A stretch of 64,000 bases of DNA from Escherichia coli (GTDB lineage: Bacteria; Pseudomonadota; Gammaproteobacteria; Enterobacterales; Enterobacteriaceae), in the NCBI RefSeq assembly GCF_045037415.1, contig NZ_CP173438.1; one strand, given 5' to 3'. A program made the position numbers and the translations under genes. Below, one piece after another: positions 1,635-31,804 of this stretch. The first letter of the stretch is position 1. Every line of letters begins with the position of its first letter. The notes beneath the pieces are model-generated. The model saw only the letters and a list, made by a program, of their open reading frames with translations, made no database searches and was not told the origin of the DNA.

Positions 1635-1636
1635 GA

Positions 1637-3265: not shown

Positions 3266-3433
<168 letters not shown>

Positions 3434-7151: not shown

Positions 7152-7160
7152 GGAACGACC

Positions 7161-8207: not shown

Positions 8208-8210
8208 GAA

Positions 8211-10546: not shown

Positions 10547-10570
10547 AATATAATGAGAATTATTATCATT
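10547..10570 (+). promoter_or_regulatory. candidate Fur box overlapping the gpmA -10 region
   Basis: AATATAATGAGAATTATTATCATT resembles the GATAATGATAATCATTATC consensus; gpmA is recalled as Fur-regulated. Confidence 0.35.
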
Positions 10571-10595
10571 AAAAGATGATTTGAGGAGTAAGTAT

Positions 10596-11348: not shown

Positions 11349-11370
11349 ACGTCATTCGCTTAAAAATGAG

Positions 11371-11403
11371 AAAGCCGACTGCAAAATGAGTCGGCTTTTT
11401 TAT
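11371..11403 (+). terminator. rho-independent terminator of gpmA
   Basis: stem AGCCGACT / AGTCGGCT followed by a T-run. Confidence 0.7.
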
Positions 11404-11430
11404 TTTTCGTTGCTACCAATGGAGCGCATT

Positions 11431-11468
11431 GCCTGATGCGACGCTGCGCGTTTTATCAGGCCTACGGT
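11431..11468. repeat. REP element
   Basis: GCCTGATGCGACGCTGCGCGTTTTATCAGGCCTACGG between convergent gpmA and aroG. Confidence 0.7.
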
Positions 11469-11514
11469 GATTAATCGGATACGCCACTCTGACAGCGCAT
11501 CCGACAATTAAACT

Positions 11515-12567
11515 TTACCCGCGACGCGCTTTTACTGCATTCGCCAGTTGACGTAACAGAGCATCGGTATCATCCCAGCCAATGCAGGCATCGGTGATGC
11601 TCTTACCGTAGGCCAGCGGTTCCCCGCTCTCGAGGCTCTGATTGCCTTCCACCAGATGGCTTTCCACCATCACGCCAATAATGGCCTTTTCGCCACCGGC
11701 AATCTGCTGGCAAACGTCAGCACAAACATCCATCTGCTTTTTGAATTGTTTAGACGAGTTAGCATGGCTGAAATCGATCATCACCTGTGCTGGCAGGCCT
11801 GCTTTGTTCAGCCCTTCTTTCACTTCAGCAACGTGCTTCGCGCTGTAGTTAGGCTCTTTACCGCCGCGCAGAATGATATGGCAATCGCCGTTACCGCTGG
11901 TATTCACAATCGCCGAATGACCCCATTTGGTCACTGAAAGGAAGCAGTGCGGCGCACCGGCGGCATTAATGGCATCGATAGCCACTTTAATCGTACCATC
12001 AGTGCCATTTTTGAAGCCTACCGGGCAAGAAAGCCCTGAAGCCAGTTCGCGGTGCACCTGCGATTCCGTAGTACGTGCGCCAATTGCGCCCCAGCTCATC
12101 AGGTCAGCGAGATATTGTGGGGTGATCATATCGAGAAACTCACCCGCCGCTGGCAGACCGCTGTCGTTAATATCAAGCAACAATTTACGGGCAATACGCA
12201 GACCGTCGTTGATCTGGAAGCTGTTATCCATATGCGGATCGTTAATCAGCCCTTTCCAGCCCACCGTGGTACGCGGCTTTTCAAAATAGACGCGCATTAC
12301 GATTTCCAGCTCATCTTTCAGCTCTTCACGCAGCGCCAGCAAGCGAGTGGCATACTCTTTAGCCGCGACAGGATCATGAATTGAGCATGGGCCAATCACC
12401 ACCAACAGGCGATCATCATTACCTTTCAGGATCTTATGGATCGCTTTTCGGGCATGGGCGACCGTATTCGCGGCATTTTCAGTAGCGGGGAATTTTTCCA
12501 GCAATGCGACAGGAGGAAGTAACTCTTTGATTTCTTTGATGCGTAAATCGTCGTTCTGATAATTCAT
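11515..12567 (-). CDS. aroG: Phe-sensitive DAHP synthase
   Basis: 350 aa starting MNYQNDDLRIKEIKELLPP. Confidence 0.97.
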   Translation of the reverse strand: MNYQNDDLRIKEIKELLPPVALLEKFPATENAANTVAHARKAIHKILKGNDDRLLVVIGPCSIHDPVAAKEYATRLLALREELKDELEIVMRVYFEKPRTTVGWKGLINDPHMDNSFQINDGLRIARKLLLDINDSGLPAAGEFLDMITPQYLADLMSWGAIGARTTESQVHRELASGLSCPVGFKNGTDGTIKVAIDAINAAGAPHCFLSVTKWGHSAIVNTSGNGDCHIILRGGKEPNYSAKHVAEVKEGLNKAGLPAQVMIDFSHANSSKQFKKQMDVCADVCQQIAGGEKAIIGVMVESHLVEGNQSLESGEPLAYGKSITDACIGWDDTDALLRQLANAVKARRG

Positions 12568-12637
12568 GTCTGTTCCAGTGTTGCCATACTTATCTTAGTG
12601 AATGCAATACTTCCAATCTATATCTTCCGTCAGAATG

Positions 12638-12655
12638 TGTAAACGGGGTTTTACA
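12638..12655. promoter_or_regulatory. TyrR box in the aroG promoter
   Basis: TGTAAACGGGGTTTTACA (TGTAAA-N6-TTTACA) about 70 bp upstream of the aroG start. Confidence 0.6.
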
Positions 12656-12882
12656 CTATGAACGGATTAATCCTGGAATTAGCAAGAAAAACGCCAGATT
12701 GTCGCGAAAAACGAGATCTCTCCTACAATTTCTAACTGTAACTCCTTTGTTTGTTAATTATTTCAAGATTCTCTGCTGGGTATCTTTGCCTGGCTGAAAT
12801 CTTAAACCATTGCCTTATATTCACCTGCAAATGCACTGTTGGAAGAGGTTATCCGACATAACGACCATAACAGGAGCATCCT

Positions 12883-13263
12883 ATGAAAATGACAAAACTG
12901 GCCACACTATTTTTGACTGCCACTCTAAGCCTTGCCAGCGGTGCCGCACTGGCTGCCGATAGCGGAGCGCAAACTAATAACGGCCAGGCAAACGCCGCCG
13001 CTGATGCGGGCCAGGTAGCCCCTGATGCCCGTGAAAATGTCGCGCCAAATAACGTCGACAATAACGGGGTAAATACCGGTTCTGGCGGCACAATGCTGCA
13101 TCCGGATGGTTCTTCAATGAACAATGACGGCATGACCAAAGATGAAGAGCACAAGAACACCATGTGCAAAGATGGTCGCTGCCCGGATATCAATAAAAAA
13201 GTCCAAACCGGTGATGGCATCAACAATGATGTCGATACCAAAACCGACGGTACCACGCAGTAA
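12883..13263 (+). CDS. ybgS: small secreted Gly/Asn/Asp-rich protein
   Basis: 126 aa with signal peptide; position between aroG and zitB as in K-12. Confidence 0.85.
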
Positions 13264-13284
13264 CCCTGCGAAATAGCCAATAAT

Positions 13285-13316
13285 GGGAGAGCGTAGTCTC
13301 TCCCTTTTAATTTTTC
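13285..13316 (+). terminator. rho-independent terminator of ybgS
   Basis: GGGAGAG-cgtagt-CTCTCCC followed by TTTTAATTTTT. Confidence 0.7.
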
Positions 13317-13376
13317 CCTTCTAAAAGCAGTATGATGTCATAAAGTTAAGTGAGAATAATTAAGGGATGACTCGTC

Positions 13377-14318
13377 ATGGCGCACTCACACTCACACACT
13401 TCCTCACACCTGCCAGAAGATAATAATGCTCGTCGCTTGTTGTATGCTTTCGGCGTGACTGCCGGGTTTATGCTCGTAGAAGTCATTGGTGGTTTTCTTT
13501 CCGGTTCTCTGGCATTGCTGGCCGATGCGGGTCATATGTTGACCGATACTGCCGCCCTGCTTTTCGCCCTACTCGCAGTGCAATTTTCCCGTCGTCCTCC
13601 CACCATTCGCCACACTTTCGGTTGGCTAAGATTGACCACGCTCGCGGCGTTTGTGAATGCCATCGCCCTGGTGGTGATTACTATTTTGATTGTCTGGGAG
13701 GCGATAGAACGCTTCCGCACTCCGCGTCCGGTCGAGGGCGGCATGATGATGGCAATTGCCGTGGCTGGGCTGCTGGCAAATATACTTTCTTTCTGGTTAC
13801 TTCATCACGGCAGCGAAGAGAAAAACCTCAACGTGCGAGCAGCGGCACTGCATGTGCTCGGGGACCTGCTGGGTTCGGTTGGGGCTATTATTGCCGCGTT
13901 GATTATTATCTGGACCGGCTGGACACCTGCTGACCCCATTCTCTCAATACTGGTGTCGCTTCTGGTTCTGCGTAGCGCGTGGCGACTGTTGAAAGATAGT
14001 GTGAATGAATTACTTGAAGGTGCACCGGTATCGCTGGATATCGCTGAACTGAAGCGTCGCTTGTGCCGGGAAATCCCGGAAGTCCGCAATGTGCACCATG
14101 TGCATGTATGGATGGTAGGCGAGAAGCCGGTGATGACGCTGCATGTGCAGGTGATCCCGCCACACGATCACGATGCCTTGTTGGATCAGATCCAACACTA
14201 CCTGATGGATCACTATCAGATTGAGCACGCCACCATTCAGATGGAATATCAACCTTGTCATGGGCCAGACTGCCACCTGAATAGAGGGGTGTCTGGCCAT
14301 TCACATCATCATCATTAA
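13377..14318 (+). CDS. zitB: cation-diffusion-facilitator Zn(II) efflux transporter
   Basis: 313 aa; His-rich N and C termini; CDF transmembrane core. Confidence 0.95.
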
Positions 14319-15034
14319 TGGGACAGCGCACGTGAACCTCTTTCGCGTGCGCTTTTGATCCACATCCGGCTGCCGTTGAGGGCAATAAAGGTCAGGATGA
14401 TGTACTCCAGAGACATGGCGTAAACGCCCTGAAGTGCAAAAATAACGACGCTAATCACGTTAATAATCACCCACAACAGCCAGTTTTCCACATACTTACG
14501 TGTCATCAGAATCATTGCCACGATAGATAACACCATCATGCATGAATCCCAGAACGGGAAAGCGTCCGGCTGTAGTTCAGGCATCGCAACCTGTAATCCT
14601 AATGCTTGCATGATCATGACTGCCACGCGGGTCAAAAATGCAAACACAGGATTGATAAATACCGTCATTAGACCAATCGAAACAACGCAAACCGCCAGCC
14701 AGCTTAGCGCCTTCGGCAATGGCAACCAGCGAATTTTCAACTCCGCCTCGTTCTGACTGGTTTGTCGCGACCACGCATACCAGCCGTAAATATTCGCGGC
14801 AAAGAAAAACACCTGTAATAACAGGCTGGCATACAGCTGAATCTGAAAGAAAATAATGCCAAACAAGGTGACGTTGATCAGGCCAAAGAAGTAGTTACTG
14901 ATCTTCTCCAGACTGGCAAGGCCAATACACAGCAACCCGGCGATCGTGCCTACCGCTTCGATCCATGAGAGATCATAACCGCCTGCCCCTATTGGTATAT
15001 GTACCAGGATATTCTGCACACTAAAAAAATCCAT
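14315..15034 (-). CDS. pnuC: nicotinamide riboside transporter
   Basis: 239 aa polytopic membrane protein downstream of nadA. Confidence 0.95.
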
Positions 15035-15071
15035 CGTTCCCCCAAAGCGTAATGTGACGCCTTATTATCAA

Positions 15072-16115
15072 TTATCCACGTAGTGTAGCCGCAAAATCCA
15101 GCATACGATTGAGCGGCACCAGCGCCCTCTCTCGCAGCCTTTCATCAACATAAACCTCGTGATTGCTTCCTTCCAGTTCTAATGCCTCTGCGATGGCCTG
15201 AAGGCCATTCATGGCCATCCACGGACAATGCGCGCAGCTGCGACAGGTTGCGCCCTCACCCGCGGTTGGTGCTTCCAGTAACTCTTTATCTGGCACCGCC
15301 TGCTGCATTTTGTAGAAAATGCCCCGATCGGTTGCCACGATAAGCCGCTGATGTTGCAATGTTTTCGCAGCAGCGATCAGTTGACTGGTGGAACCGACCG
15401 CATCCGCCATCTCTACAATAGCTTGCGGTGATTCTGGATGCACCAGTATGGCAGCATCCGGGTATTCTTCTTGCAAGCGGGTTAACGCCTGAGTCTTAAA
15501 CTCATCATGCACAATGCAGGCACCCTGCCAGCATAAAATGTCTGCGCCCGTCTGTTTTTGCACGTAACGCCCCAGATGTTTGTCAGGTGCCCAGATGATT
15601 TTTTCACCCAAACTATCCAGATGATCAATAAGTTCGACGGCAATGCTTGAAGTTACCACCCAATCTGCGCGCGCTTTTACCGCAGCAGAAGTGTTGGCGT
15701 AGACGACGACAGTACGATCGGGATGGGCATCGCAAAATGCGTTAAATTCTTCAACAGGGCAGCCGAGATCCAGTGAACATTCAGCCTGAAGTGTCGGCAT
15801 CAGAATTGTTTTTTCCGGACTGAGAATTTTGGCGGTTTCTCCCATAAATCTCACCCCAGCGACTAGCAACGTAGAAGCGGGATGCTTTGCACCGAAGCGC
15901 GCCATTTCCAGAGAATCAGAAATACAGCCACCGGTTTCTTCTGCCAGTTGTTGAATTTCGGGATCGGTATAGTAGTGGGCAACCATCACCGCATTACGTT
16001 CTTTTAGTAGACGTTTTATCTTCTCGCGGTAATTCGCTTTTTCATCAATGCTTAACGGCGTCGGCTTCGGGGGGAAAGGATAAATCGCCGTGTCTGGATC
16101 AAACATCACGCTCAT
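15072..16115 (-). CDS. nadA: quinolinate synthase
   Basis: 347 aa starting [18 protein letters not shown]. Confidence 0.97.
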
Positions 16116-16187
16116 CTTACCATCTCGTTCTACAGGCTTAACGTTAAAACCGACTTAAGCGTGATATTCGCTATTATCGGCGTAATT

Positions 16188-16205
16188 TGTTTTATATACT
16201 AAACA
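16188..16205. promoter_or_regulatory. NadR box upstream of nadA
   Basis: TGTTTTATATACTAAACA, one mismatch to TGTTTA-N6-TAAACA, about 75 bp upstream of the nadA start. Confidence 0.55.
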
Positions 16206-16359
16206 AGATAGTCGAATGGTGGGGAAAAGTCACTCGAATTACGTATGAGATGCCGAATGCCACACTTTGCGTCTTATTCCTCCGACGTAGAGTTGTTTAC
16301 GCAGCAAACGCGGAGTATGTCATCAGGGTCAAGAATTGAAATTGAGAGATGCCTGAATA

Positions 16360-16392
16360 GCAAAAAAACGCCTTTAGGGCGCTTTTTTGCAT
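16360..16392 (-). terminator. terminator of the Lys/Val tRNA operon
   Basis: GC hairpin followed by a T-run on the minus strand immediately 3' of the last tRNA. Confidence 0.55.
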
Positions 16393-16468
16393 TGGTGGGT
16401 CGTGCAGGATTCGAACCTGCGACCAATTGATTAAAAGTCAACTGCTCTACCAACTGAGCTAACGACCC
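16393..16468 (-). tRNA. lysQ: tRNA-Lys(UUU)
   Basis: 76-nt exact match to recalled E. coli tRNA-Lys incl. CCA; symbol by position in operon. Confidence 0.93.
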
Positions 16469-16501
16469 CTTGCGGGATTATGCTGCTTTAATCATTCAGG
16501 A

Positions 16502-16577
16502 TGGTGGGTCGTGCAGGATTCGAACCTGCGACCAATTGATTAAAAGTCAACTGCTCTACCAACTGAGCTAACGACCC
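16502..16577 (-). tRNA. lysZ: tRNA-Lys(UUU)
   Basis: identical 76-nt tRNA-Lys copy. Confidence 0.93.
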
Positions 16578-16625
16578 ATACGGGTGTTACCTGAAAGATT
16601 TCTACTCGGAACCAATGTTTAAAAT

Positions 16626-16701
16626 TGGTGGGTCGTGCAGGATTCGAACCTGCGACCAATTGATTAAAAGTCAACTGCTCTACCAACTGAGCTAACGACC
16701 C
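16626..16701 (-). tRNA. lysY: tRNA-Lys(UUU)
   Basis: identical 76-nt tRNA-Lys copy. Confidence 0.93.
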
Positions 16702-16704
16702 GAG

Positions 16705-16780
16705 TGGTGGGTGATGACGGGATCGAACCGCCGACCCCCTCCTTGTAAGGGAGGTGCTCTCCCAGCTGAGCTAATCACCC
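16705..16780 (-). tRNA. valZ: tRNA-Val(UAC)
   Basis: 76-nt match to recalled E. coli tRNA-Val(UAC) incl. CCA; 3-nt spacer to next tRNA. Confidence 0.9.
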
Positions 16781-16831
16781 GATACTGCGCTGGATACTAC
16801 AAACTACTTCCACCGAACCCACCGTAATCAG

Positions 16832-16907
16832 TGGTGGGTCGTGCAGGATTCGAACCTGCGACCAATTGATTAAAAGTCAACTGCTCTACCAACTGAGCTA
16901 ACGACCC
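16832..16907 (-). tRNA. lysW: tRNA-Lys(UUU)
   Basis: identical 76-nt tRNA-Lys copy. Confidence 0.93.
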
Positions 16908-16909
16908 GG

Positions 16910-16985
16910 TGGTGGGTGATGACGGGATCGAACCGCCGACCCCCTCCTTGTAAGGGAGGTGCTCTCCCAGCTGAGCTAATCACCC
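16910..16985 (-). tRNA. valT: tRNA-Val(UAC)
   Basis: 76-nt tRNA-Val copy; 2-nt spacer to lysW. Confidence 0.9.
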
Positions 16986-17020
16986 GATACTACGCTGGAT
17001 ACTACAACTAACTATGTTAG

Positions 17021-17096
17021 TGGTGGGTCGTGCAGGATTCGAACCTGCGACCAATTGATTAAAAGTCAACTGCTCTACCAACTGAGCTAACGACCC
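17021..17096 (-). tRNA. lysT: tRNA-Lys(UUU)
   Basis: identical 76-nt tRNA-Lys copy; first gene of the operon. Confidence 0.93.
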
Positions 17097-17139
17097 ACTT
17101 TTTCGTTGCTTTCGGTTTGTTTGATATCCCGTGGCAACG

Positions 17140-17180
17140 GCGGCATATATTACTGATTTCAGACTTGAGCGCAACAAAAA
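17140..17180 (-). promoter_or_regulatory. putative sigma70 promoter of the tRNA operon
   Basis: minus strand: -35 TTGCGC, 16-bp spacer, -10 TAATAT, GC-rich discriminator, A/T-rich upstream tract. Confidence 0.45.
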
Positions 17181-17260
17181 TTTCGATGTAGATCACTCAA
17201 CTGCTTATGATTCGCACGACACGACCAGAAATAATGCGACTTCTGGTCGTGTGTTATGCA

Positions 17261-18052
17261 TTACATCGCGTTCAGACGTTTTTGCGCCTGTTTAGCGCCA
17301 TCAGTACCAGGGTATTTACTGATAACCTGCTGGTATACGGCTTTCGCTTTTGCGGTGTCACCTTTGTCCTGCATGATGACGCCGACTTTAAACATCGCAT
17401 CTGCAGCCTTCGGTGACTTCGGATAGTTTTTCACTACCGAAGCAAAATAATACGCCGCATCATCTTTTTTACCCTTGTTGTAGTTTAACTGACCCAGCCA
17501 ATAATTGGCGTTTGGCAGGTAAGTTGAATCAGGGTAATTTTTGATGAAATTCTGAAATGCCACCATTGCGTCATCCTGGCGGGATTTATCCTGCACCAGC
17601 GCAATAGCTGCATTGTAATCCGTGTTTGCATCACCGCTTTTCACCGGCGCGCCAGCATTCGAAGTACCAGCATCAGCTGTCGGCGTCGTTGATGCCACCA
17701 CACCGCTTTGATCGCCGCTGGTTGATTGCGCCGCTGCACCACCGCTGCTGAGGCTGTCGATCTGCAACAGGATCTGCTTTTGCCGCTCCACGACCTGATT
17801 CAGTTGATACTGATTTTCCTGAATCTGACCACGCAGGGAATCAATATCGGATTGATTATCAGAGAGTTGTTGCTGGAGTTGGGTTAAAAGCTGGCTGTGA
17901 GCATTAGAAATACGCTCAAGTTGAGTGACGCGGTCTTCGACCGAGCCTGAGCCGACACTACTGATTGGTGCCTGAGCAAAAGCGGCCCAGGGGGCCGCTA
18001 TACCAACCAGTAACGACAGACTCAATAGTTGATGTCTGAAGTTACTGCTCAT
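17261..18052 (-). CDS. cpoB: cell division coordinator CpoB (TPR periplasmic protein)
   Basis: 263 aa; signal peptide, coiled-coil, C-terminal TPR; last gene of tol-pal cluster. Confidence 0.95.
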   Translation of the reverse strand: MSSNFRHQLLSLSLLVGIAAPWAAFAQAPISSVGSGSVEDRVTQLERISNAHSQLLTQLQQQLSDNQSDIDSLRGQIQENQYQLNQVVERQKQILLQIDSLSSGGAAAQSTSGDQSGVVASTTPTADAGTSNAGAPVKSGDANTDYNAAIALVQDKSRQDDAMVAFQNFIKNYPDSTYLPNANYWLGQLNYNKGKKDDAAYYFASVVKNYPKSPKAADAMFKVGVIMQDKGDTAKAKAVYQQVISKYPGTDGAKQAQKRLNAM

Positions 18053-18061
18053 GCAATTCTC

Positions 18062-18607
<546 letters not shown>

Positions 18608-18617
18608 TTAATTATTA

Positions 18618-19910
18618 TCACAGATACGGCGACCAGGCAGGGAATTTGACCTGTCCATCAGTTGCCGGAAGACGCGCTTTGAAACGCCCATCTGTAGAAA
18701 CCAAATTCAGCACGGATCCCATCCCCTGAGAAGAGCTGTAGATTACCATAGTGCCGTTAGGTGCCAGACTTGGCGTTTCATCCAGGAACGTGGACGACAG
18801 AACTTGTACGCCTCCCGTTGCCAGATCTTGTTTGGCAATGTGCTGCTGCCCACCGTTGGAGCTGACCATTACCATAAATTTACCGTCGCTGCTGACATCC
18901 GCATCCTGGTTCTGCGAACCTTCCCAGGTAATACGTTGTGGCGCACCGCCGTTGATATTCACTTTATAAACCTGCGGACGACCGGCCTGGTCAGAAGTAA
19001 ATGCCAGGTTCTGGCTGTCCGGGAACCAGGTCGGTTCGGTATTGTTACTGCGACCATCAGTTACCTGGCGGATCTGACCAGAAGCCAAATCCATTACGTA
19101 CAGGTTCAGGCTACCGGTTTTCGACAAGGCGAATGCCAGTTTGCTGCCGTCTGGCGAGAATGCAGGTGCACCGTTGTGACGCGGGAATGAAGCCACCTGA
19201 CGTACAGCGCCATTTGCCAGCGTCTGAATAACCAGCGCGGAACGACCGCTTTCGAAGGTCACATAAGCCAGTTTAGAACCGTCTGGTGACCACGCCGGAG
19301 ACATCAGCGGTTGCGGTGAACGGTGAACGACAAACTGGTTGTAACCGTCATAGTCAGATACGCGCAGTTCATACGGGAACTGACCGCCGTTAGTCTGAAC
19401 AACGTAGGCAATACGGGTACGGAACGCACCTTTAATACCGGTCAGTTTTTCAAATACTTCGTCACTGGCGGTATGACCAGCATAACGCAGCCACTGCTTG
19501 TTCACTTTGTACGAGTTCTGAGCAAGTACAGTACCCGGTGCGCCGCCAGTGTCAACAAGTTGATAAGCAACATTGTAAGAACCATCCGGATTCGGAGTGA
19601 CCTGACCGACAACCACAGCGTCAATGCCCAGCGCGGACCATGCAGCTGGTTGTACTTCCTGCGCACTACCCGGCTGCTGTGGCAGACGAGCACGATCTAA
19701 CGGATTAAATTTACCGCTGTTACGCAAGTCAGCAGCAACGATGCCGCCAATATCTTCAGGTGCCGCACCAGGCCCCGCCCACTGGAAAGGAACAACACCA
19801 ATAGGACGACCGGAATCTACACCGCTGTCGATCACAATGCGGACTTCAGCATGCAGAACTGATGCCCACAGTATGAGAAAACCAAATGCTACTCGTAATG
19901 CCTGCTTCAT
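18618..19910 (-). CDS. tolB: Tol-Pal system periplasmic beta-propeller protein
   Basis: 430 aa; start at [12 protein letters not shown]. Confidence 0.97.
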
Positions 19911-20042
19911 CATATCTCCCTTATCTGGACCGATGGCCCACGATAATTTAGCAGAATGTTAACAAACTAAAATACACAAAACTACCAGAACCCCGTGGCA
20001 ACCGGTGCCTGATGTTGACCGTCGGAACAGTCAACATCGCGA

Positions 20043-21353
20043 TTACGGTTTGAAGTCCAATGGCGCGTTTTTGAACACTTCATATACTGCCTGGCTTGGT
20101 GGTTTCGGGATCTTCGCAAGTTTAGCTGCTGCCAACGCAGCTTGACAAAGTGCGGGATCGCCACCTTCAGGTTTGATATCCAGTAACATACCATCGGGTG
20201 CCAGTTTTATGCGCAGCGTACAGGTTTTGCCTGCATAGGACGATGCGTCATAGAACTTACTTTCGATAGCAGATTTAATCTGCCCGGCATAGTTATTGAT
20301 ATCGGCCCCTGATGCGCCATTGTTTTTAGTATTACCACTCCCGGCAGGCGAAGCATTGTTCCCTTTCGCCCCTCCCCCCGTTTTCGGTGCATTCTTACCA
20401 GAGCTTAGCTCACCGAAAATATCATCTGCCTCAGCGGCAGCTTTTGCTGCAGCGGCTTTTTCAGCTGCTGCTTTTGCCGCTGCCGCTTTTTTGTCTGCGG
20501 CGGCTTTTTCTGCCGCTGCTTTCTTATCAGCTGCTGCCTTTTCAGCAGCCGCTTTTTCTGCTGCTTTTTTGTCGGCTGCCGCTTTCTCTGCTGCCGCTTT
20601 CTTATCAGCTGCAGCCTTTTCAGCAGCCGCTTTTTCTGCTGCTTTTTTGTCGGCTGCCGCTTTCTCTGCTGCCGCTTTCTTCTCAGCTTCTGCCTTGGCT
20701 TTTTCAGCAGCTTCGGTTGCCGCTTTCTTTCTTGCTTCAGCTGCAGCTGCTTCTGCCGCTTCAGCTTTCTTCTTCAGCGCCGCAGCAGCAGCCTCGGCTT
20801 TTTTCTGCGCTTCGACTGCGGCTTTGGCGGCTTCTGCTTCTGCTTTTTTCTTCGCGTCTGCCGCCGCTTTCTTCGCTGCTTCTTCCGCAGCTTTAGCATC
20901 CGCTTCGGCCTTCGCTTTAGCATCTGCCGCCGCTTTCGCTGCCGCCTCTTCCGCTTGCTTCTGCTTTAACTCGGCCTGTTTTGCGGCTTCTTCAGCCTGC
21001 TTTTTCTGCTCCTGAGCCGCTAACCGCTCTTTCTCAAGTTGCTTCAGGCGTTCCTGTTCAGCCGCTTGTTTCTCACGCAGTTCTTCAGCAGCCTGCTGCT
21101 CTTTCATCTTGCGCTGCTCATCAGAACGCTTCGCGCTTGATTCCTGGCTTTGCATGCGTTTGTACTGCTCAACTACCGCACCTGAATCAACCATGACAGC
21201 GTCGATGGACGAACCACCGCCGCCTCCGGCTGAAGCTTCTATATTCTCATCGAACGAACTCCAGATCAGCGCCGCAAATAAGATGACATGCAGCACTGCT
21301 GAAATAATTATCGCCCGCTTGAGCTTGTCGTTTTGTTCGGTTGCCTTTGACAC
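20043..21353 (-). CDS. tolA: Tol-Pal system protein TolA
   Basis: 436 aa; N-terminal TM anchor, long Ala/Lys/Glu-rich domain II, C-terminal domain III. Confidence 0.95.
   Translation of the reverse strand: MSKATEQNDKLKRAIIISAVLHVILFAALIWSSFDENIEASAGGGGGSSIDAVMVDSGAVVEQYKRMQSQESSAKRSDEQRKMKEQQAAEELREKQAAEQERLKQLEKERLAAQEQKKQAEEAAKQAELKQKQAEEAAAKAAADAKAKAEADAKAAEEAAKKAAADAKKKAEAEAAKAAVEAQKKAEAAAAALKKKAEAAEAAAAEARKKAATEAAEKAKAEAEKKAAAEKAAADKKAAEKAAAEKAAADKKAAAEKAAADKKAAEKAAAEKAAADKKAAAEKAAADKKAAAAKAAAEKAAAAKAAAEADDIFGELSSGKNAPKTGGGAKGNNASPAGSGNTKNNGASGADINNYAGQIKSAIESKFYDASSYAGKTCTLRIKLAPDGMLLDIKPEGGDPALCQAALAAAKLAKIPKPPSQAVYEVFKNAPLDFKP
20521..20676. repeat. 78-bp tandem duplication (2 copies, 1 mismatch) inside tolA domain II
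   Basis: 20521-20598 and 20599-20676 are near-identical; in frame, each encodes a 26-aa Ala/Lys/Glu/Asp unit. Confidence 0.85.
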
Positions 21354-21417
21354 TCTCGGTTTCCAAAAACTGTTCGCCTGTTACCCGCTCTCTTTCAAGC
21401 AAGGGAAACGCAGATGT

Positions 21418-21846
21418 TTAGATAGGCTGCGTCATTAAACCAACCGATTTCACACCCGCACTATGTAACAAGTTCAGTGCTTTAATTATTTCATCGTAAG
21501 GCACATCTTTTGCGCCACCGATCAGAAAGACCGTTTTCGGGTTGGCCTTGAAACGGCTGGACACTTCCGCCACCACCTGCTCTGGTGGTAAACGCTCCAG
21601 GCGATCTTTCTCAACCACCACGGTGTACTGACCAATACCAGACACTTCAACAATCACTGGCGGATTATCGTTACTGCTCACCGCCTGTGATTCAGTAGCG
21701 TCTGGCAGATCGACCTCCACGCTCTGGGTGATGATGGGCGCTGTCGCCATAAAGATCAGCAACAGCACCAGCAGTACGTCCAGCAACGGTACAATGTTGA
21801 TTTCGGACTTGAGATCGCGACGACCTCGTCCACGCGCTCTGGCCAT
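21418..21846 (-). CDS. tolR: Tol-Pal system protein TolR
   Basis: 142 aa ExbD/TolR family. Confidence 0.97.
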   Translation of the reverse strand: MARARGRGRRDLKSEINIVPLLDVLLVLLLIFMATAPIITQSVEVDLPDATESQAVSSNDNPPVIVEVSGIGQYTVVVEKDRLERLPPEQVVAEVSSRFKANPKTVFLIGGAKDVPYDEIIKALNLLHSAGVKSVGLMTQPI

Positions 21847-21849
21847 GGC

Positions 21850-22943
<1,094 letters not shown>

Positions 22944-23041
22944 TTTACATCCCGGTAATGCAACAAAAGTTAGAGCTTTTAAACGCTGCTACTATACGCG
23001 CGCGATTGAGGTTTGGGAATGAGGGCAAGTTAAGGGAGCGT

Positions 23042-23077
23042 AAAAATTTATGGGCCTGACTCGGCCCATAAATTTTT
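23042..23077. terminator. bidirectional hairpin terminator between ybgE and ybgC
   Basis: ATTTATGGGCC-tgactc-GGCCCATAAAT flanked by A and T runs. Confidence 0.65.
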
Positions 23078-23092
23078 AAAGAGAATTCTGAT

Positions 23093-23386
23093 TTAAAAGA
23101 AGAAGAAAATCAGCCCGACAATGAGAACAATATCGGCAAGCAATGGGCAAAAAAACCCTTGCCAGAGAACCTTCTGCGGACGAAAGCCCACGCCGTGAAT
23201 CACACCAGCACAGACGGCCCACATAAGCAGTAAACCATGCCAGATTTCCAGTTCACTGGTCTTCGCGGCGAAACGTGATGGGTCCCAAAACATACATCCT
23301 GCTAACAGAAGTGCCATCACGAAGGAAAGCGCCCGCAGGGGGCGCTTGTCCATTACCGCATACAAGGTTGCGATAATCTTACTCAT
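23093..23386 (-). CDS. ybgE: cyd operon membrane protein
   Basis: 97 aa hydrophobic protein downstream of cydX. Confidence 0.9.
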   Translation of the reverse strand: MSKIIATLYAVMDKRPLRALSFVMALLLAGCMFWDPSRFAAKTSELEIWHGLLLMWAVCAGVIHGVGFRPQKVLWQGFFCPLLADIVLIVGLIFFFF

Positions 23387-23499
23387 CAGATGTCTTCTTG
23401 ACCGGCTTTGCCTGATTCGACGTGCTCAAGCGCCAGCGCGGTGATTACCCCAAACGAACAGGCAAGAAGCGTTCCCAGAATCCATGCGAAATACCACAT
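23386..23499 (-). CDS. cydX: cytochrome bd-I oxidase small subunit
   Basis: 37-aa ORF MWYFAWILGTLLACSFGVITALALEHVESGKAGQEDI translated by hand from the minus strand; stop overlaps ybgE start. Confidence 0.85.
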   Translation of the reverse strand: MWYFAWILGTLLACSFGVITALALEHVESGKAGQEDI

Positions 23500-23513
23500 T
23501 TTTAGCTCCTTAC

Positions 23514-24653
23514 TTAGTACAGAGAGTGGGTGTTACGTTCAATATCTTCTTTGGTGATACGACCGAACATTTTCCAGTAACACCAGGCGGTGTAGAGCAG
23601 AATGATCGGTACCAGAACCACCGCAACCCAGGTCATGACGTTAAGCGTCAGCTGGCTGGAAGTTGCATCCCACATTGTCAGACTTGCGTTCATCATGGTG
23701 CTGGACGGCATCACAAACGGGAACATTGCGATACCGGCAGTCAGGATGATGCAGGCCAGCGTCAGGGAGGAGAAAACAAACGCCCACGCGGCTTTATCCA
23801 TACGTGCAGTCAGGATGGTCAGCAGCGGCAGAACCACACCCAGTGCCGGAATAGCCCACAGAATTGGCGTGTTGTTGAAGTTAACCAGCCATGCGCCAGC
23901 TTCACGAACCACTTCTTTATTCAGCGGGTTAGAGGCTGCGTAATGGTCCATTGTCGATTTCACGACATAACCATCGATACCGTACATCACCCATACGCCA
24001 GCCAGTGCGAAGCAGACCAGCGTCACCAGTGCCGCCACCTGAGCCGTTGCACGGGTACGCAGGTGCAGTTCGCCCACGGTACGCATTTGCAGATAGGTTG
24101 CGCCCTGAGTAATGATCATCCCTACGCTCACCACACCTGCCAGCAGGCCGAACGGGTTAAGCAGCTGGAAGAAGTTACCGGTGTAGTACAGACGCAGATA
24201 TTCATCAACGTTGAATGGTACGCCCTGCAACAGGTTACCGAACGCTACACCAATCACCAGCGGCGGAACGAAGCTACCAATGAAGATGCCCCAGTCCCAC
24301 ATGTTACGCCAGCGGGTTTCTTCAATCTTGGAGCGGTAGTCAAAACCGACCGGACGGAAGAACAAAGACGCCAGTACGAGGATCATCGCCACATAGAAGC
24401 CGGAGAACGCAGCGGCATAGACCATCGGCCAGGCAGCAAACAGTGCACCGCCTGCGGTGATCAGCCAAACCTGGTTACCGTCCCAGTGTGGTGCGATGGA
24501 GTTAATCATAATTCGACGCTCGGTGTCGTTACGACCGAGGAAACGGGTGAGCATGCCCACCCCCATGTCGAAACCGTCAGTGACTGCAAAACCAATCAGC
24601 AGAACGCCAACCAGCAGCCACCAGATAAAACGCAATACTTCATAATCGATCAT
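23514..24653 (-). CDS. cydB: cytochrome bd-I oxidase subunit II
   Basis: 379 aa polytopic membrane protein. Confidence 0.97.
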   Translation of the reverse strand: MIDYEVLRFIWWLLVGVLLIGFAVTDGFDMGVGMLTRFLGRNDTERRIMINSIAPHWDGNQVWLITAGGALFAAWPMVYAAAFSGFYVAMILVLASLFFRPVGFDYRSKIEETRWRNMWDWGIFIGSFVPPLVIGVAFGNLLQGVPFNVDEYLRLYYTGNFFQLLNPFGLLAGVVSVGMIITQGATYLQMRTVGELHLRTRATAQVAALVTLVCFALAGVWVMYGIDGYVVKSTMDHYAASNPLNKEVVREAGAWLVNFNNTPILWAIPALGVVLPLLTILTARMDKAAWAFVFSSLTLACIILTAGIAMFPFVMPSSTMMNASLTMWDATSSQLTLNVMTWVAVVLVPIILLYTAWCYWKMFGRITKEDIERNTHSLY

Positions 24654-24668
24654 TTGACGACTCCTGTC

Positions 24669-26237
24669 TTAGCGTGCCGGCTGAGTAGTCGTGGAAGACT
24701 GCTCAAAGTGATAGCGACCGGTTTTCAGGCTGCTTGGGCCGAGGCGTGCAAACTTGAACATTAAGAACAATTCTGCCACCAGGAACAGGGTATACAGGCC
24801 GCAAATCAGCACCATTGAGAAGATGAGATCGCCTGCGGTCAGTGACGAGTTCGCCACAGCTGTCGGCAGCACTTCACCGATAGCCCACGGTTGGCGGCCA
24901 TATTCAGCCACGAACCAGCCCGCTTCTACAGCAATCCACGGCAGCGGAATACCGTACAGCGCGGCGCGCAGCAGCCATTTTTTCTCGCCAATGCGGTTGC
25001 GGATGACACTCCAGAAAGAGAGCGCAATGATTGCCAGCAGCAGGAAGCCACACGCCACCATGATACGGAACGCGAAGTACAGCGGCGCTACACGCGGAAT
25101 GGAGTCTTTGGTTGCCTGTTGAATCTGAGCTTCAGTCGCATCAGCCACGTTTGGCGTATAGCGTTTCAGCAGCAGACCGTAACCGAGATCTTTCTTCATG
25201 CTATTGAACTGGTCACGAACGGCCTGGTCAGTAGAACCAGAACGCAGTTGTTCGAGCAGAGAGTACGCCTTCATCCCGTTACGAATGCGTTCTTCATGCT
25301 GCACCATCAGTTCTTTCAGACCGATAACTGGAGTATCCACGGAACGCGTTGCAATGATGCCCAGCGCGTAAGGGATCTGGATCGCAAATTTGTTCGTCTC
25401 CTCTTCCTGATCAGGAATGCCGAACAGAGTAAAGGCAGCAGGTGCAGGTTGCGTTTCCCACTCGGCTTCAATAGCAGCCAGTTTGGTTTTCTGCACGTCG
25501 CCCATTTCGTAGCCGGATTCATCACCCAGAACAATAACAGACAGAACGGCAGCCATACCGAAGCTGGCAGCGATAGCAAAGGAGCGTTTAGCGAAGGCGA
25601 AGTCACGACCTTTCAGCATATACCATGCGCTGATACCGAGGATGAACATCGCGCCAGTCACATAACCAGAAGCTACGGTGTGAACGAATTTCACCTGAGC
25701 AACCGGGTTAAGCACCAGCTCGGAGAAGCTCACCATCTCCATACGCATAGTTTCAAAGTTGAAATCGGACGCGATTGGGTTTTGCATCCAGCCGTTTGCA
25801 ACCAGAATCCACAGTGCGGACAGGTTTGAACCGAGCGCCACCAGCCAGGTGACACACATATGCTGAACTTTACCCAGACGATCCCAACCGAAGAAGAACA
25901 GACCTACAAAGGTGGATTCGAGGAAGAAGGCCATCAGACCTTCGATTGCCAGCGGCGCACCGAAGATATCCCCTACATAGTGGGAATAGTAAGACCAGTT
26001 AGTCCCGAACTGGAACTCCATGGTCAGACCGGTAGCCACACCCAGAGCAAAGTTGATACCAAACAACTTGCCCCAGAACTTGGTCATATCTTTATAAATC
26101 TGTTTGCCGGAAAGGACGTAGACCGTTTCCATAATGGCCAGCAGGAACGCCATACCGAGCGTCAGTGGCACAAAAAGGAAGTGGTACATCGCGGTCAAGG
26201 CAAACTGTAAGCGCGACAGTTCGACTATATCTAACAT
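24669..26237 (-). CDS. cydA: cytochrome bd-I oxidase subunit I
   Basis: 522 aa starting [19 protein letters not shown]. Confidence 0.97.
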
Positions 26238-26522
26238 CATGACTCCTTGCTCATCGCATGAAGACTCCGAGAGTGAACCCCGTTAGAAAGGGTCACACGC
26301 ATGCCCCAATACAAAATTATTTGCTCGCCTCTATCGTTGCCATTTCATCAAAAGAAGAAAAGACAATGATAAAAAAGTTACAAATATGTTAATGAATAAA
26401 CCAAATTTATCCCGTAATTATATTACGCTGCAAAATCCTTACAATAAACAGGTTTTTATTGAGCAAATTTGCATTTTTCGACAGTGATCAATTTATAGCG
26501 AAATTGTCACGATCCCACCAAT

Positions 26523-26536
26523 TTGATCTACAACAA
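26523..26536. promoter_or_regulatory. FNR-like half-palindrome in cydA upstream region
   Basis: TTGATCTACAACAA, partial match to TTGAT-N4-ATCAA, about 290 bp upstream of the cydA start. Confidence 0.4.
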
Positions 26537-26574
26537 TTTATCGTGTTTTGCAGATTTTTTTCAAGAATTAAAAA

Positions 26575-26588
26575 TTGATTTATATCAA
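26575..26588. promoter_or_regulatory. FNR binding site in cydA upstream region
   Basis: TTGATTTATATCAA, perfect TTGAT-N4-ATCAA, about 340 bp upstream of the cydA start. Confidence 0.6.
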
Positions 26589-27744
26589 AATCAATCAGAT
26601 ATGTTAACCGCTCGTAAATCATGAATCATTGATGGGTTTGTTGTTAATAAATTGTAGCAAAATAACACAGTAAAACTACCCACATGGAAATATATAGATA
26701 AAAAACCAGTATTTTATTTAACAGAACCGCCTTATCGACTTTTTATAATACTAGTTAGTTAGAGTAGCTACTTTGTTGCCATTTTACATAACATATTTTT
26801 ATCAACGTTAATTGATTGTTGTCTTTATGAGCAACGTACTGTAAATCCGTCACTTATTGTTTCATTGGTAATAATCACAAGAAGAAATAGATACCTTAGG
26901 TATAGTCAGATGGAACAAGGATTTTCAAAATAAATTTATATGGTATTAATATTTCCCGATCTGTATTCAATGATTCGCTCAAAGATTGAAAATCAAGAGA
27001 AATTGTTATAGCAGTGATACGAGACAACAAAACGGAATGATTGCCAGCCGTTAGAAAACACCGGACACTCTCGTGTAAAAAGCTACCCTGTCTATGGATA
27101 TAGCGATATCGACTCATCAAGCGTGGACTGAATGATATTCAGCTCCATATGGGCGGCAACCTGGAGGATAAACATGATTTCGCCGTTGGAATCAAGGTTG
27201 TTCTGCAATATCTACCAGACTGCTTCAATTTATCTGTTTTGGAAGTGCAATAATCTTAATTTAACTATTTGAAGATGATGATATTGTCAGATGCCAGAAA
27301 TTTAGTAATCTGGAGAACCGTGTCTATGATCACTAAATATTAAAGTAATAGTCGTCAGTAACACATCGAGTGATATAACGTATTGACACCTAATCATATA
27401 AAAACAGATCGTAATTAAGCAGCATAAGAATATGTCTTATTATCATTAAAATACATTCTATTTCCATCATCCTTAAGATAATAAAACAGTGAGTGATGGA
27501 TAATTTCACCCCAAAAAAAAGCAAGCATATAAAATTAAAAAACATGACTCCACTTTCATTTTTATGAAATGGCATCGTGAAGAGGCGCCAGCCAATTATA
27601 AAGATCTTGCTCCTCAAAAAATGAAACAACTCAGCCTGAGATAATATTTTTGACCGAAGTTAACATTAAAAATGGTTAATAGTTTGCGCCTCTCACACAG
27701 GTCCAGGCAACTGCGTAACAGGCAAATCAAATTTTCGTAAACAG

Positions 27745-27770
27745 TGGGCATCATCAGATGCCCACAAAAT
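27745..27770 (-). terminator. hairpin downstream of the TPR-protein gene
   Basis: perfect 9-bp stem GTGGGCATC-tgat-GATGCCCAC just 3' of the stop; weak T tract. Confidence 0.45.
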
Positions 27771-27779
27771 ACAGCTGAT

Positions 27780-28973
27780 TTACATTTTCGTCTTTACACG
27801 TGCAATAGCTTCTTCATAAGAAGGCTTATTTTTTTCCGTATACGCCAGTTGATAATGCTGCAATGCTTCAGCATTCTGGCCCGAGGTTTCATAAATTTTG
27901 GCAATGTTATAATAGGAGTTGGCGCGCGTTGTCGCCGCATTTACCCCACTCGCTAACGAGATCGCTTTACGATTTGCCCAAATTGCTTCCGCTATGTTGC
28001 CATTTTTCTGATACGCCAGACCCAGGTTACTAAATGCCTGTCCGTAATTGCCGTCTAATTCTGTTGCCTGTTGGAAGAGTTGAATGGCTTGCTCAAGTTG
28101 ACCGGTTTTATAAACAGCTTCACCTTCGCGATTATATTTTCTTGCCAGTTGAGTATCTCCACTGTTTTGCATCGCAGGCGAAGCCGGAGCTGAAGAGTCC
28201 GTCGCAGGCATTATCACAGTGGCTAAATCCCTGACGTCTAATGTGGTGCCGTTAAAATTGGCGCTGGTAACAGAGTTGATATCTTCAAACTCGCCGTTTG
28301 GATTGAGTTTAAACACGGTCCAGATGTTCCCTCGTTTTCCTGCAGGGACACTATAACTACGTACCAGGGAGCTCCCTACATAAACAAACACTTTTGCCTT
28401 ACTGGCAGAGAGATAATTACTGTTGGGCAGCCCTTTATTGCTATAGTCCTGCACGGCATAGATGTAACTTTCACCAAAATGCTTTTTGCTGATAGTGACA
28501 GTTTCTGGTCCATAGCTATCCGTATCATCAACATCCAGATTGGCATCAGTTCCCTCTTTACTATCAAAATAGATATGTCCGCCAGGGAAGATCAAATGCG
28601 AATCAAGATCAAAAGGCTTTTCGCCCCAGCTCAAAACTACACGCATGCCATCCAGATTCGTCATCACCGGACTGATAGCATAAGTCATGCCAGCGCACGG
28701 ACATTTGACCACCAGATTGGAATACCCCTCTTTTTTGACGATTAATAGAGCATCTTTATTATCAGCAAATGAAGTCCCCAAACTAATGCTGCCCGAAGTA
28801 TTTGTGATACCAGAAACAGATTGTGCACCATTGCGTTGCAGCGTCACCGATGCCCCTTCAATGCGTTTATCTTTCACTGTCGCACTTAAAATATCAATGC
28901 TTACATCGGCGGCATAAGCACCTGCATTCATGCCCAACAGCGCGAGAGCAACTGGCAAAACAATTTTCTTCAT
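27780..28973 (-). CDS. secreted protein with C-terminal TPR repeats (accessory; not in K-12 as I recall)
   Basis: 397-aa ORF; Sec signal peptide MKKIVLPVALALLGMNAGAYA; C-terminal TPR-like repeats; AGGA RBS; visibly lower GC than flanking core genes. Confidence 0.75.
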   Translation of the reverse strand: MKKIVLPVALALLGMNAGAYAADVSIDILSATVKDKRIEGASVTLQRNGAQSVSGITNTSGSISLGTSFADNKDALLIVKKEGYSNLVVKCPCAGMTYAISPVMTNLDGMRVVLSWGEKPFDLDSHLIFPGGHIYFDSKEGTDANLDVDDTDSYGPETVTISKKHFGESYIYAVQDYSNKGLPNSNYLSASKAKVFVYVGSSLVRSYSVPAGKRGNIWTVFKLNPNGEFEDINSVTSANFNGTTLDVRDLATVIMPATDSSAPASPAMQNSGDTQLARKYNREGEAVYKTGQLEQAIQLFQQATELDGNYGQAFSNLGLAYQKNGNIAEAIWANRKAISLASGVNAATTRANSYYNIAKIYETSGQNAEALQHYQLAYTEKNKPSYEEAIARVKTKM

Positions 28974-29092
28974 GTATAAATCCTTTTTTTAATGAATGTA
29001 AGGTGGAAATTTCCCAGTTATTATTATCGTGTTAAAAGGTGAAAAAAAAGAAATAAGTACACTTTTCAGATTAACACCCACTCACCTTGAAA

Positions 29093-29116
29093 CAAAAAGG
29101 CCATCCGGAGATGACC
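29093..29116 (-). terminator. rho-independent terminator of the mngAB operon
   Basis: minus strand GGTCATC-tccg-GATGGCC followed by TTTTT, 55 nt after the mngB stop. Confidence 0.6.
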
Positions 29117-29170
29117 TGAACTTTCTGAGAAACGCTGTTTTTTCATGTGGTTTGCTTTATTACACACCAT

Positions 29171-31804
29171 TCAGACTATTCGGTAGCTAAATGTCCGCGA
29201 CTGTCCCGGTAAAAAGAGAGCTAATTCTTTTAAAACCTCATTTTTTTCTGTATTAAAGCGTTCATTCATCATGGTTTCTGTACACGTCATCACCTTCCTG
29301 CTAAACGCGACGGTCGCATCACAGCTTGTCAATTCAGCCGGATTAAACAGCCGCAATATTAATTCCTGTCTGTCTTCTGCTTTTTTTAGCGCGCTGATCA
29401 GACATCCCACTGGTGGCATTTTCAGCAAACTATAGCTTTCCGGCACATTGAATTTGGCTTTATTAAGCTTCATCGCATCCCACGGGATTTTGTTATAACA
29501 CTGAACTGGCGTCAGCCATGCGCGTGCCTGCTGGGCTACACCGGCAGTTACGGGAGTACCGATATAACTAAATAAACTCAGACGACAGGAAAATGATCCG
29601 CGTAATTGTGAATCGGACACAGGCATTTTAATTCCTGAAGGACGCCCTGGCCTTAAAAGTAAATCTTCTTTTCCCAGTAATCCCACACCACGCAACAACG
29701 TAATAGCAAAGGTTTTATTCTCTTCTCCAATGACTTCAAATTCACGTAATCCTTCGCTAAAAACGGCTATGCCGTTACGCCCTTCCTGTAAGACAGCATA
29801 GTTGAGCATATTCCATACCGGAACCGGCGCTTCTTTCCAGCCTTCTTGCTGCCAGACATTCATTGCGCAATCCTTCACTGGCCGCGTCAATGAACCAAAC
29901 TGCGTATCCGCAAGAACAACATCTGTGTTAAAAGGCGTGGGAATCAATACACGAATACGGTGATCATCGGCCTGGTTATCAAGATTAATATCCGCATCAA
30001 TGCGTCTGCTGTTATGGCTAAGAGTGATCACCGTCTCCACCCCTACCCTGCCAGAACATTGCTTTGCGCGACGCTCTGACAGATTACGCGGCACCGCTAT
30101 TTCATAGCGAATTATGGCCCTACTCTGCCAGGCTTCATGAATAATATCGTATTGCGGTTTCGCATTCGCTGAGGTAATGGCCCACTCTTCTTTTGCTGGC
30201 GAATAATCATATTCATCCCCATCATCGGAACCTTCTTCAATTTGAAACACCCGGTCATAGCGCACGCCACTATCTTTATCAACCAGACGAAGTGAACCAT
30301 CCTCATTGAGTGCAATTTGCCAGAAAGCATTTTCCAGTATTCCCTCTGTTTTACTTTTTGGCGTGACCACATTGCCAAGCTGATTCGCTTCTATATAGAG
30401 CGTGCGATACCCCATAGAAGGGACAATTTGGCTGATCTGAATATCAAACTCCATAAAGGGATCATAATTGCCGTAATGAACTATTTGCCGATCAATAAGG
30501 CCGGGATCGATCTCACGGGCATGTCGAATAAAATATGGCACAGGCTGACCGCGACCGTCTCGCAAATTAAACTGGCTACCGCGCAGTCGAACAGTTGTGT
30601 TGATAACTTCTTCACGCGGCCAGGGCATCAGGTTAAACAGGACGAGTTTGTCGGCGTCGCTCTGCGGCATGTTGTCTGCTATTTTGCGCATATAGAACCG
30701 AATTAGATTATCCGCCATGTCTTCTGCCAGTTCGAAGCGGGCGACAATCTCGCGATGAACTTTATCACTGCAGCAGCAGCCGATGCTGTCATGGGCGTGG
30801 TTTTTTAAAATTTCTTTCCACATCTTCTCCAGCAAGCCGTGGTGATAATCAAAACCTAAAGTCCAGGCCAGCGTTGCCAACGGTTCCAGCAGATTAACAA
30901 TCTTATTTTCAATGCGTGCGTGGGCAATTTTGATATCCATGCGCGTGGAACCGATGGTGCGATGCACGCGCATATATTTGCCATCGATGAATTCACCTTT
31001 CAGGATGGCCAGACTTTCACGCTGCGCTTCAATCTGCTCGAATACCTCTTCAAAGCGGCTCATCACAAACTTTCGTTGAGGATAAATTTCGCGCAGTTTC
31101 TCCATCACTTCGAAGATATTTTGCTGCAAGGGCATCTGGTCATGACCATTCGGCAATAAAATTTCTTTGGTTACTGACGCTTTTTCCAGCACGTCAAAAT
31201 AACTGTCGAGGCGTTTACGTAATCCATTTTCGTCCGCAGGTAAGTACTTACCGATGGCGTAGCCCAGCGGCAGCACCTGCGCCGTCACTTCGCTACCGTC
31301 ACTGCTTTGCCACAAAAACTCGGTTTTATCAGTACCGTGGCGCTCAGAACATCCGCGCCAGAACATGGTGCGGGTAATGCCAAATCCATTGTATATATGT
31401 GGCAGTTGCCCGGACATGCCAAAGGAATCCGGTAAATAACCTATTTTCATCGGCTCGCCAAACGCGAGGCAGTCACGCATTCCGTACATCAGATTACGGA
31501 CTATGGATTCAGCAGAAACAATCGTGGTATCGGTCTGGGTATACCAGGGACCGATAATTAATTTCCCGCCCTCGACCAACTTCTTCACACGATCTTTGTT
31601 CTCCGGTTTGACAGCGAAATAATCTTCGAGGATCGCCGTTTGCCCGTCGAGTACGTAATATTTGTATTCGTTGTCCTGTTCCAGTCTGCACAGGATCTCT
31701 TCCATATTATTGACCAGCAGAATGCGAGACTCTTCTGTGGTGAAATACCACTCCCGATCCCAGTGCATATGCGGGGTGATGTGAACGCGAGATACCGCTT
31801 TCAT
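29171..31804 (-). CDS. mngB: alpha-mannosidase (GH38)
   Basis: 877 aa; position downstream of mngA. Confidence 0.93.

Follow-up and report, generated by a model that had tools for sequence, protein, structure and literature searches.

What does a 78-bp tandem duplication inside tolA represent, and how much should it matter to the cell that carries it? The question arises from a stretch of 64,000 nucleotides of Escherichia coli DNA (NCBI RefSeq assembly GCF_045037415.1, contig NZ_CP173438.1; hereafter the window), in which tolA occupies 20043..21353 on the minus strand and encodes, from a GTG start, a protein of 436 amino acids (aa). Its repeat tract is, very probably, the 16-unit allele of an already known in-frame variable-number tandem repeat (VNTR) of tolA, and the standard allele of the sequence type 131 (ST131) lineage.

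The duplication consists of two adjacent segments of 78 bp (20521-20598 and 20599-20676) whose sole difference is T at 20535 and A at 20613, just as the original prediction from the letters alone had described. In the reading frame, the repeat is offset by 5 nt from that register: copy 1 (words C D E F G in the nomenclature below; aa 225-250) lies at 20604..20681 and copy 2 (C D E F H; aa 251-276) at 20526..20603, both on the minus strand, and each encodes the same 26-aa Ala/Lys/Glu/Asp peptide, KKAAAEKAAADKKAAEKAAAEKAAAD, the mismatch being synonymous (GCA versus GCT, both Ala). Tandem Repeats Finder detected, at 20480..20696, an array of period 78 with 2.8 copies, 92% matches and a score of 364, together with overlapping 15-bp and 33-bp periodicities, which places the block in a wider field of degenerate repeats. 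The best 78-nt self-identity in the Ala-rich tract is 77/78, at a shift of 78, and the next-best in-frame shift gives 59/78. When the tract was codon-shuffled 200 times, the self-identity over 78 nt averaged 53 and reached 58 at most; the duplication thus far exceeds the Ala-rich tract background.

For comparison between alleles, the tract was split into words of 15 or 18 bp, each ending in Glu or Asp, and the unit count was calibrated to the scale of Zhou et al., on which MG1655 has 13. The whole tandem-repeat tract spans 20433..20681 (minus strand) and comprises 16 units of 15 or 18 bp, that is, pentads and hexads of the form K1-2 A2-4 (E/D), following the unit definition of PMC3477136. The word string of the window allele is A B [C D E F G][C D E F H] I J K L, and its higher-order unit is five words long (18+15+15+15+15 = 78 bp). 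Words I and J (20493..20525, minus strand; aa 277-287, KKAAAEKAAAD) form a degenerate partial third copy, in keeping with the 2.8 copies found above, and the distal words K and L (20433..20492, minus strand; KKAAAAKAAAE KAAAAKAAA) make up the last four units. Upstream, the degenerate words A and B (20682..20741, minus strand; aa 205-224) coincide with a predicted break between two long helices.

The tolA gene of MG1655 (b0739) is 1266 bp long and encodes 421 aa with 13 units. Its word string, common to the alleles of MG1655, BL21 and Nissle, is A B O G [C D E F H] I J K L, in which the junction word, O, is identical to AAG + F. The two proteins draw on the same word vocabulary and are equal in length in domains I and III and in the first ~200 residues, with 13 nucleotide differences between the genes outside the tract. 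The lengths of 436 and 421 aa given in the original prediction are correct, but the excess of 15 aa does not correspond to the 26-aa block, since 111 of the duplication's 156 bp, equal to 1.4 copies of the 78-bp unit, are already there in K-12. Identical length to K-12 on proper alignment had been named as an outcome that would overturn the prediction; the alignment instead leaves the window allele 45 bp (three units, 15 aa) longer, not a whole 26-aa block. Words G and H, whose difference is the one mismatch between the 78-bp copies, both occur in the 421-aa alleles, and the difference therefore predates the split between the alleles. At a spacing of 78, the perfect direct repeat measures 68 bp in the window allele versus 20 bp in MG1655. 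Because of this difference, RecA-dependent exchange should be more frequent in the window allele, and judged by repeat length the ST131 allele should be the more recombinogenic of the two.

Positions 1..29766 of the window, tolA included, are 100% identical without gaps to 780001-809766 of EC958 (O25b:H4-ST131) in reverse orientation, and the allele is assigned to the ST131 lineage on account of this identity over 29.8 kb. Strain SK1144 also has a 100% tolA match; the only paper found on it calls it a diffusely adherent strain of phylogroup B2, and the lineage was set via EC958.

The distribution of the allele was surveyed with whole-gene tolA queries in 5,425 complete E. coli genomes, all but one of which contain tolA; a match in the band of at least 99% identity was taken as the same length and near-identical sequence. 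The 436-aa allele was found in 518 genomes (9.5%; full 1311 bp), the MG1655-type 421-aa allele in 2909, the Nissle-type 421-aa allele in 272 and a 420-aa allele in 23. In an evenly spaced sample, 26 of 40 records were 1266 bp, near the published 66% with 13 units. Alignment of alleles gives 13 length classes (394, 404, 410, 416, 420, 421, 424, 426, 432, 436, 445, 447 and 462 aa), bearing out the expectation that the tract is length-polymorphic across strains. Among the alleles compared, the length differences all fall within aa 205-300, with domains I and III constant in length, and no stop interrupts the translation of any of the 15 alleles examined. The 421-aa arrangement is spread over distant backgrounds, with 13 single-nucleotide polymorphisms (SNPs) outside the tract in the MG1655-type and 3 in the Nissle-type allele, and the 436-aa arrangement was seen on an ST131-like background only, with 0 SNPs.

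On the background of the window allele, ~518 genomes (about 94%) keep 436 aa and ~32 carry single-step derivatives (23 + about 8 + 1), so that the tract is mutable yet mostly stable within the lineage. Repeat number is accordingly polymorphic, as had been proposed, but the term hypervariable is too strong for natural populations. The most frequent derivative is the 420-aa allele, which lacks 48 bp of the window allele through a fusion of words A and B into C, has 0 SNPs elsewhere and occurs in strains labelled O25b:H4-ST131. We observed that the junction of this 48-bp deletion (fusion word GCTGAAGCAAGAAAGAAAGCGGCAGCAGAG) is common to the 420-aa allele (strain 22726, 0 SNPs) and to O157-type alleles (12 SNPs), which, by sequence comparison, suggests either recurrent independent deletion or transfer. 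A laboratory deletion reaching upstream of the tract and exactly matched in a natural STEC (Shiga toxin-producing) isolate has been described (PMC3477136).

Much of what can be said of such a tract is already known, since papers of 2012 described the polymorphism in repeat length, the mechanism by which it mutates and its effects on phenotype; as a discovery the duplication matters little, since the window carries an ordinary ST131 allele of that polymorphism. An earlier survey of intragenic tandem-repeat polymorphism in tolA was published by Zhou, Vanoirbeek, Aertsen and Michiels in 2012 (Res Microbiol 163:316). Zhou, Michiels and Aertsen (2012, PLoS One 7:e47766, PMC3477136) describe the MG1655 tract as 13 imperfect 15- or 18-bp units and found 8-16 units among 234 isolates, with 13 units in 66%. 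The window allele, with 16 units, stands at the top of this range and resembles the published VNTR in that copy-number differences between strains are in frame and confined to the tract; it shows no categorical difference from it. In clonal cultures, contractions of an MG1655 reporter allele pre-exist at frequencies of up to 6.9e-5, their frequency falls to 15% in recA and is 3.3-fold higher in uvrD, and they are overwhelmingly 5-unit deletions, with no expansions among 150 colonies (PMC3477136). The last two units (TR12-13), linked to YbgF/CpoB binding, never took part in contractions (PMC3477136). By the word lengths determined here, the predominant 5-unit deletion would correspond to one 78-bp higher-order unit. 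The available part of the text of PMC3477136 contains neither a 78-bp higher-order unit nor an assignment of the 16-unit allele to ST131, and the earlier survey may contain them. A literature search for tolA together with ST131 returned papers that name tolA without mention of the repeat tract. Three increments may go beyond the literature covered: the 78-bp unit as the likely basis of the 5-unit deletions, the assignment of the 16-unit form to ST131, and the natural alleles of 18 units (447 aa) and 21 units (462 aa), which lie outside the 8-16 range of Zhou et al. and widen it.

How might the 436-aa allele have arisen? Unequal homologous recombination between the 15/18-bp words (Lys1-2-Ala2-4-(Glu/Asp)), or slippage between them during replication, would produce alleles of this kind, and TolA would stay in frame because the changes are always multiples of 3 bp. 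The word strings link alleles by single steps. Starting from the 421-aa allele, A B O G [CDEFH], a gain of 78 bp would give 447 aa (A B O G [CDEFG][CDEFH]), and a subsequent 33-bp loss of O G, between the AAGAAAGCGGC starts common to O and C, would give the 436-aa string A B [CDEFG][CDEFH]. Such a path needs no point mutation, because the G/H difference is already in the 421-aa alleles. Seven genomes carry a 447-aa allele with precisely this string (18 units), which outside the tract differs from the window by 2 SNPs. We regard this two-step origin, from 421 through 447 to 436 aa, as rather probable. Two other paths were rejected: simply duplicating 78 bp in the 421-aa allele would yield 447 and not 436 aa, and a path via the 410-aa allele (a 33-bp loss, then a 78-bp duplication) needs an extra point mutation to recreate word G. 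As a separate observation, the tolA of strain 382634_2f (445 aa) is of the 447 type with words E F replaced by KKQKKYAE, 6 bp shorter; it may reflect either a genuine mutation or an error of sequencing.

We infer the direction and order of these events, as well as the recombination mechanism for the window allele and its phenotype. The order from 421 through 447 to 436 aa is a parsimony argument, and it counts against it that a single 45-bp deletion between AAAGCGGC repeats, which lie in words C and F, converts the 436-aa into the 421-aa allele. Were the two-copy 436-aa allele ancestral, one event would replace two, the exact identity of the junction word O with AAG + F would be what such a deletion predicts, and the bias of the laboratory experiments, in which only deletions were recovered and no expansions in 150 colonies (PMC3477136), would point the same way. 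We nevertheless think this opposite polarity unlikely, as the 421-aa arrangement is in the majority and sits on very different SNP backgrounds (13 and 3 SNPs), the 436-aa arrangement is limited to the ST131-like background with its 0 SNPs, and the intermediate of the two-step path exists.

If the 78-bp unit is what drives the variation, forms with one and with three copies are to be expected on the ST131 background; this recombination model was tested by building one-copy and three-copy alleles in silico on the window background and then searching for them. The synthetic one-copy allele (1233 bp, 410 aa) had a 100% match in 7 genomes, of which S103EC has 20 kb of flanking DNA 100% identical to the window and Br_54_kylling differs in 20 kb by 2 SNPs. 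For the three-copy construct (1389 bp, 462 aa, 21 units) there was a 100% match in one genome, VTB96937v (chicken, South Africa), whose 10-kb upstream flank has 1 SNP relative to the window and whose downstream flank has about a dozen mismatches or gaps, concentrated around a tRNA array. The 78-bp unit fits the predominance of 5-unit deletions and predicts that the ST131 allele would be more recombinogenic, and the natural 410-aa and 462-aa derivatives are consistent with that. We also noted that the PGAP start of tolA in VTB96937v (10001..11389) is placed 42 nt downstream of the GTG used elsewhere; the upstream DNA is identical, and this is an inconsistency of annotation, not of biology. In FDAARGOS_144, a 410-aa tolA has the word string of the one-copy ST131 derivative on a Nissle-like background (word L+, 2 SNPs), and this is best explained by O G loss from the 421-aa allele, the same arrangement reached by another route.

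As to the protein, the 84 aa of the tract include 48 Ala, 22 Lys and 14 Glu/Asp, and the charged residues form 14 K-to-E/D pairs at i, i+4, one per pentad, with none in the reverse orientation. A single-sequence AF2 model predicts helices at 60-204 and 214-317, separated by a low-confidence break at 205-213 in word A, and the repeat tract falls in the second of these with a pLDDT of 76-87 over most of its length. By its charged i/i+4 pairs and its continuous predicted helix, the tract would qualify as an Ala-rich helical spacer. Ala-based helical spacers are exemplified by (EAAAK)n linkers and by the Marqusee-Baldwin peptides with i/i+4 Lys-Glu pairs. The TolA tract resembles these in its Ala-rich composition, its i, i+4 charged pairs and its predicted continuous helix; unlike the engineered (EAAAK)n linkers, its pairs run K-to-E and not E-to-K, and it is part of a natural force-transducing stalk. 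Domain II has been characterized as a rigid helical stalk in which the efficiency of force transduction depends on structure more than on exact length (PMC10666116, PMC12583513), and its length across Proteobacteria ranges over 110-335 residues (PMC12204202). If a straight helix is assumed, 15 extra residues correspond to about +2.2 nm.

With domains I and III untouched, TolA would remain fully functional. Chromosomal variants with 2, 6, 8, 13, 26 and 39 units all restored the sodium dodecyl sulfate (SDS) and osmotic tolerance of a tolA deletion, and variants of 6 to 39 units were expressed normally (PMC3477136). Deoxycholate tolerance rose with unit number, by 3.2-fold at 26 units and 15.5-fold at 39 units over wild type, and spanned four orders of magnitude from 2 to 39 units; tolerance of 0.6 M NaCl at pH 5 was best at 6-13 units (PMC3477136). 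Phage fd plated at 28-43% of wild type on every non-13 variant (PMC3477136), in agreement with the idea put forward in the original prediction that repeat number affects phage entry, at least for large changes in copy number. Because the variants of 6-39 units express normally and restore SDS tolerance, a step from 13 to 16 units should be close to neutral. Any phenotypic effect, such as slightly higher bile-salt tolerance or altered entry of filamentous phage, is probably small; the evidence so far suggests slight effects from slight changes in length. If the length variants truly affect bile tolerance or the entry of colicins or phage in ST131, they would have a bearing on colonisation and on bacteriocin or phage therapeutics.

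A more ambitious view would treat the tract as an adaptive contingency locus. Classical contingency loci, in the sense of Moxon et al., undergo phase variation through simple sequence repeats. The tolA tract shares with them a position in the gene of an envelope protein, a mutation rate faster than that of point mutation and heritable phenotypic variants, and this framing is used in PMC3477136. It differs in that its units are multiples of 3 bp and its natural alleles all in frame, so that length is modulated with no on/off switching, and in that tolA changes mainly by RecA-dependent recombination, not by slippage of units of 1-8 bp; with units of 15 and 18 bp, it has neither a unit length indivisible by 3 nor a promoter repeat of the kind that gives on/off phase variation. 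That the ST131 allele switches rapidly among 410, 436 and 462 aa, with differing bile-salt tolerance and phage or colicin entry, and thereby aids the success of ST131, could draw on the copy-dependence of deoxycholate tolerance, the reduced fd plating of every non-13 variant and the pre-existing contraction mutants (PMC3477136), as well as on the 68-bp perfect repeat (20 bp in MG1655), which should raise recombination frequency, and on the natural +/-78-bp derivatives on the ST131 allele background. We judge it improbable: doubling the units from 13 to 26 gave only 3.2-fold better plating on deoxycholate and little is to be expected of 13 to 16, variants of 2 to 39 units tolerated SDS and osmotic stress like the wild type, on/off switching is absent from a tract of units in multiples of 3 bp, ST131 papers that name tolA are silent on the tract, and with about 94% of genomes on this background keeping 436 aa a stable lineage marker is the better fit. 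Slightly more doubtful still is the specific claim that ST131 tolA, with a 68-bp perfect repeat offering over three times the homology of K-12, is a faster-switching length locus whose 410-, 436- and 462-aa forms differ measurably in bile-salt tolerance and in susceptibility to filamentous phage and Tol-dependent colicins; if true, it would give a pandemic lineage standing envelope variation during gut colonisation.

An assembly artefact expanding the repeat in this assembly alone, which the original prediction had named as its own refutation and which is suggested by the proneness of repeats to mis-assembly, has a negligible probability, given that EC958 and 518 independent complete genomes share this very allele of 1311 bp, that the 156-bp duplication is shorter than typical reads, and that a fixed base distinguishes the two copies.

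The interpretation as the standard 16-unit ST131 allele has several points weighing against it. The ST131 assignment was made through EC958, and the carrier SK1144 is described as phylogroup B2 only. A mis-assembly might conceivably lie behind the lone 462-aa genome. The AF2 model, built from the single sequence with no alignment, has a pTM of 0.25, which renders the packing of the two long helices unreliable. Sixteen units are not among the constructs tested (2, 6, 8, 13, 26 and 39), and the phenotype is extrapolated.

The tract can also mislead screens for gene presence or absence. A comparative-genomics study of ST131 scored the tolA of EC958 as 'only partially present' in ST38, ST405 and ST648 (PMC5654935), and the repeat tract may have caused this score by disturbing the alignment, with no truly partial gene behind it.

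The gene itself is TolA, full-length, with domain III, the transmembrane motif and the expected cluster, and the placement of the duplication in helical domain II held. It is 100% identical to the tolA of EC958 (WP_000030659.1) and matches the NCBIfam TolA equivalog models NF007065 (552 bits, cut-off 213) and TIGR02794 (310 bits, cut-off 59). Domain III (aa 340-434; 20052..20336, minus strand) matches the full profile (1-96) of Pfam PF06519 with E = 2e-38. The transmembrane helix of domain I (21255..21302, minus strand; AF2 helix 3-33) carries, in the translation, the motor-binding motif S18-H22-L29-S33; this Ser-His-Leu-Ser motif of the TolA transmembrane helix is defined in PMC10666116. Two plus-strand open reading frames (ORFs), 20296..21015 and 20387..20896, were rejected as genes, being antisense read-throughs of GCN-rich coding DNA that encode low-complexity A/F/S/L strings, and an Rfam scan found no RNA family within tolA.

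From the ORF list and the annotation of the identical EC958 DNA, the gene order around tolA is ybgC-tolQ-tolR-tolA-tolB-pal-cpoB. Upstream of tolA in the operon are tolR (21418..21846) and tolQ (21850..22542); tolB (18618..19913) follows it in the operon, and pal (about 18062..18583) and cpoB (17261..18052) lie further downstream, all on the minus strand. The pal-cpoB intergenic region contains a known element, the Rfam CpoB/ybgF thermometer RF02782 (153.7 bits; 18023..18161, minus strand). Downstream of cpoB is an array of seven tRNAs (Lys, Lys, Lys, Val, Lys, Val, Lys; 16393..17096, minus strand) with internal repeats of ~280 bp at 92.9% identity. At the same place VTB96937v has six tRNAs only, so that the copy number of this array, too, differs between close relatives.

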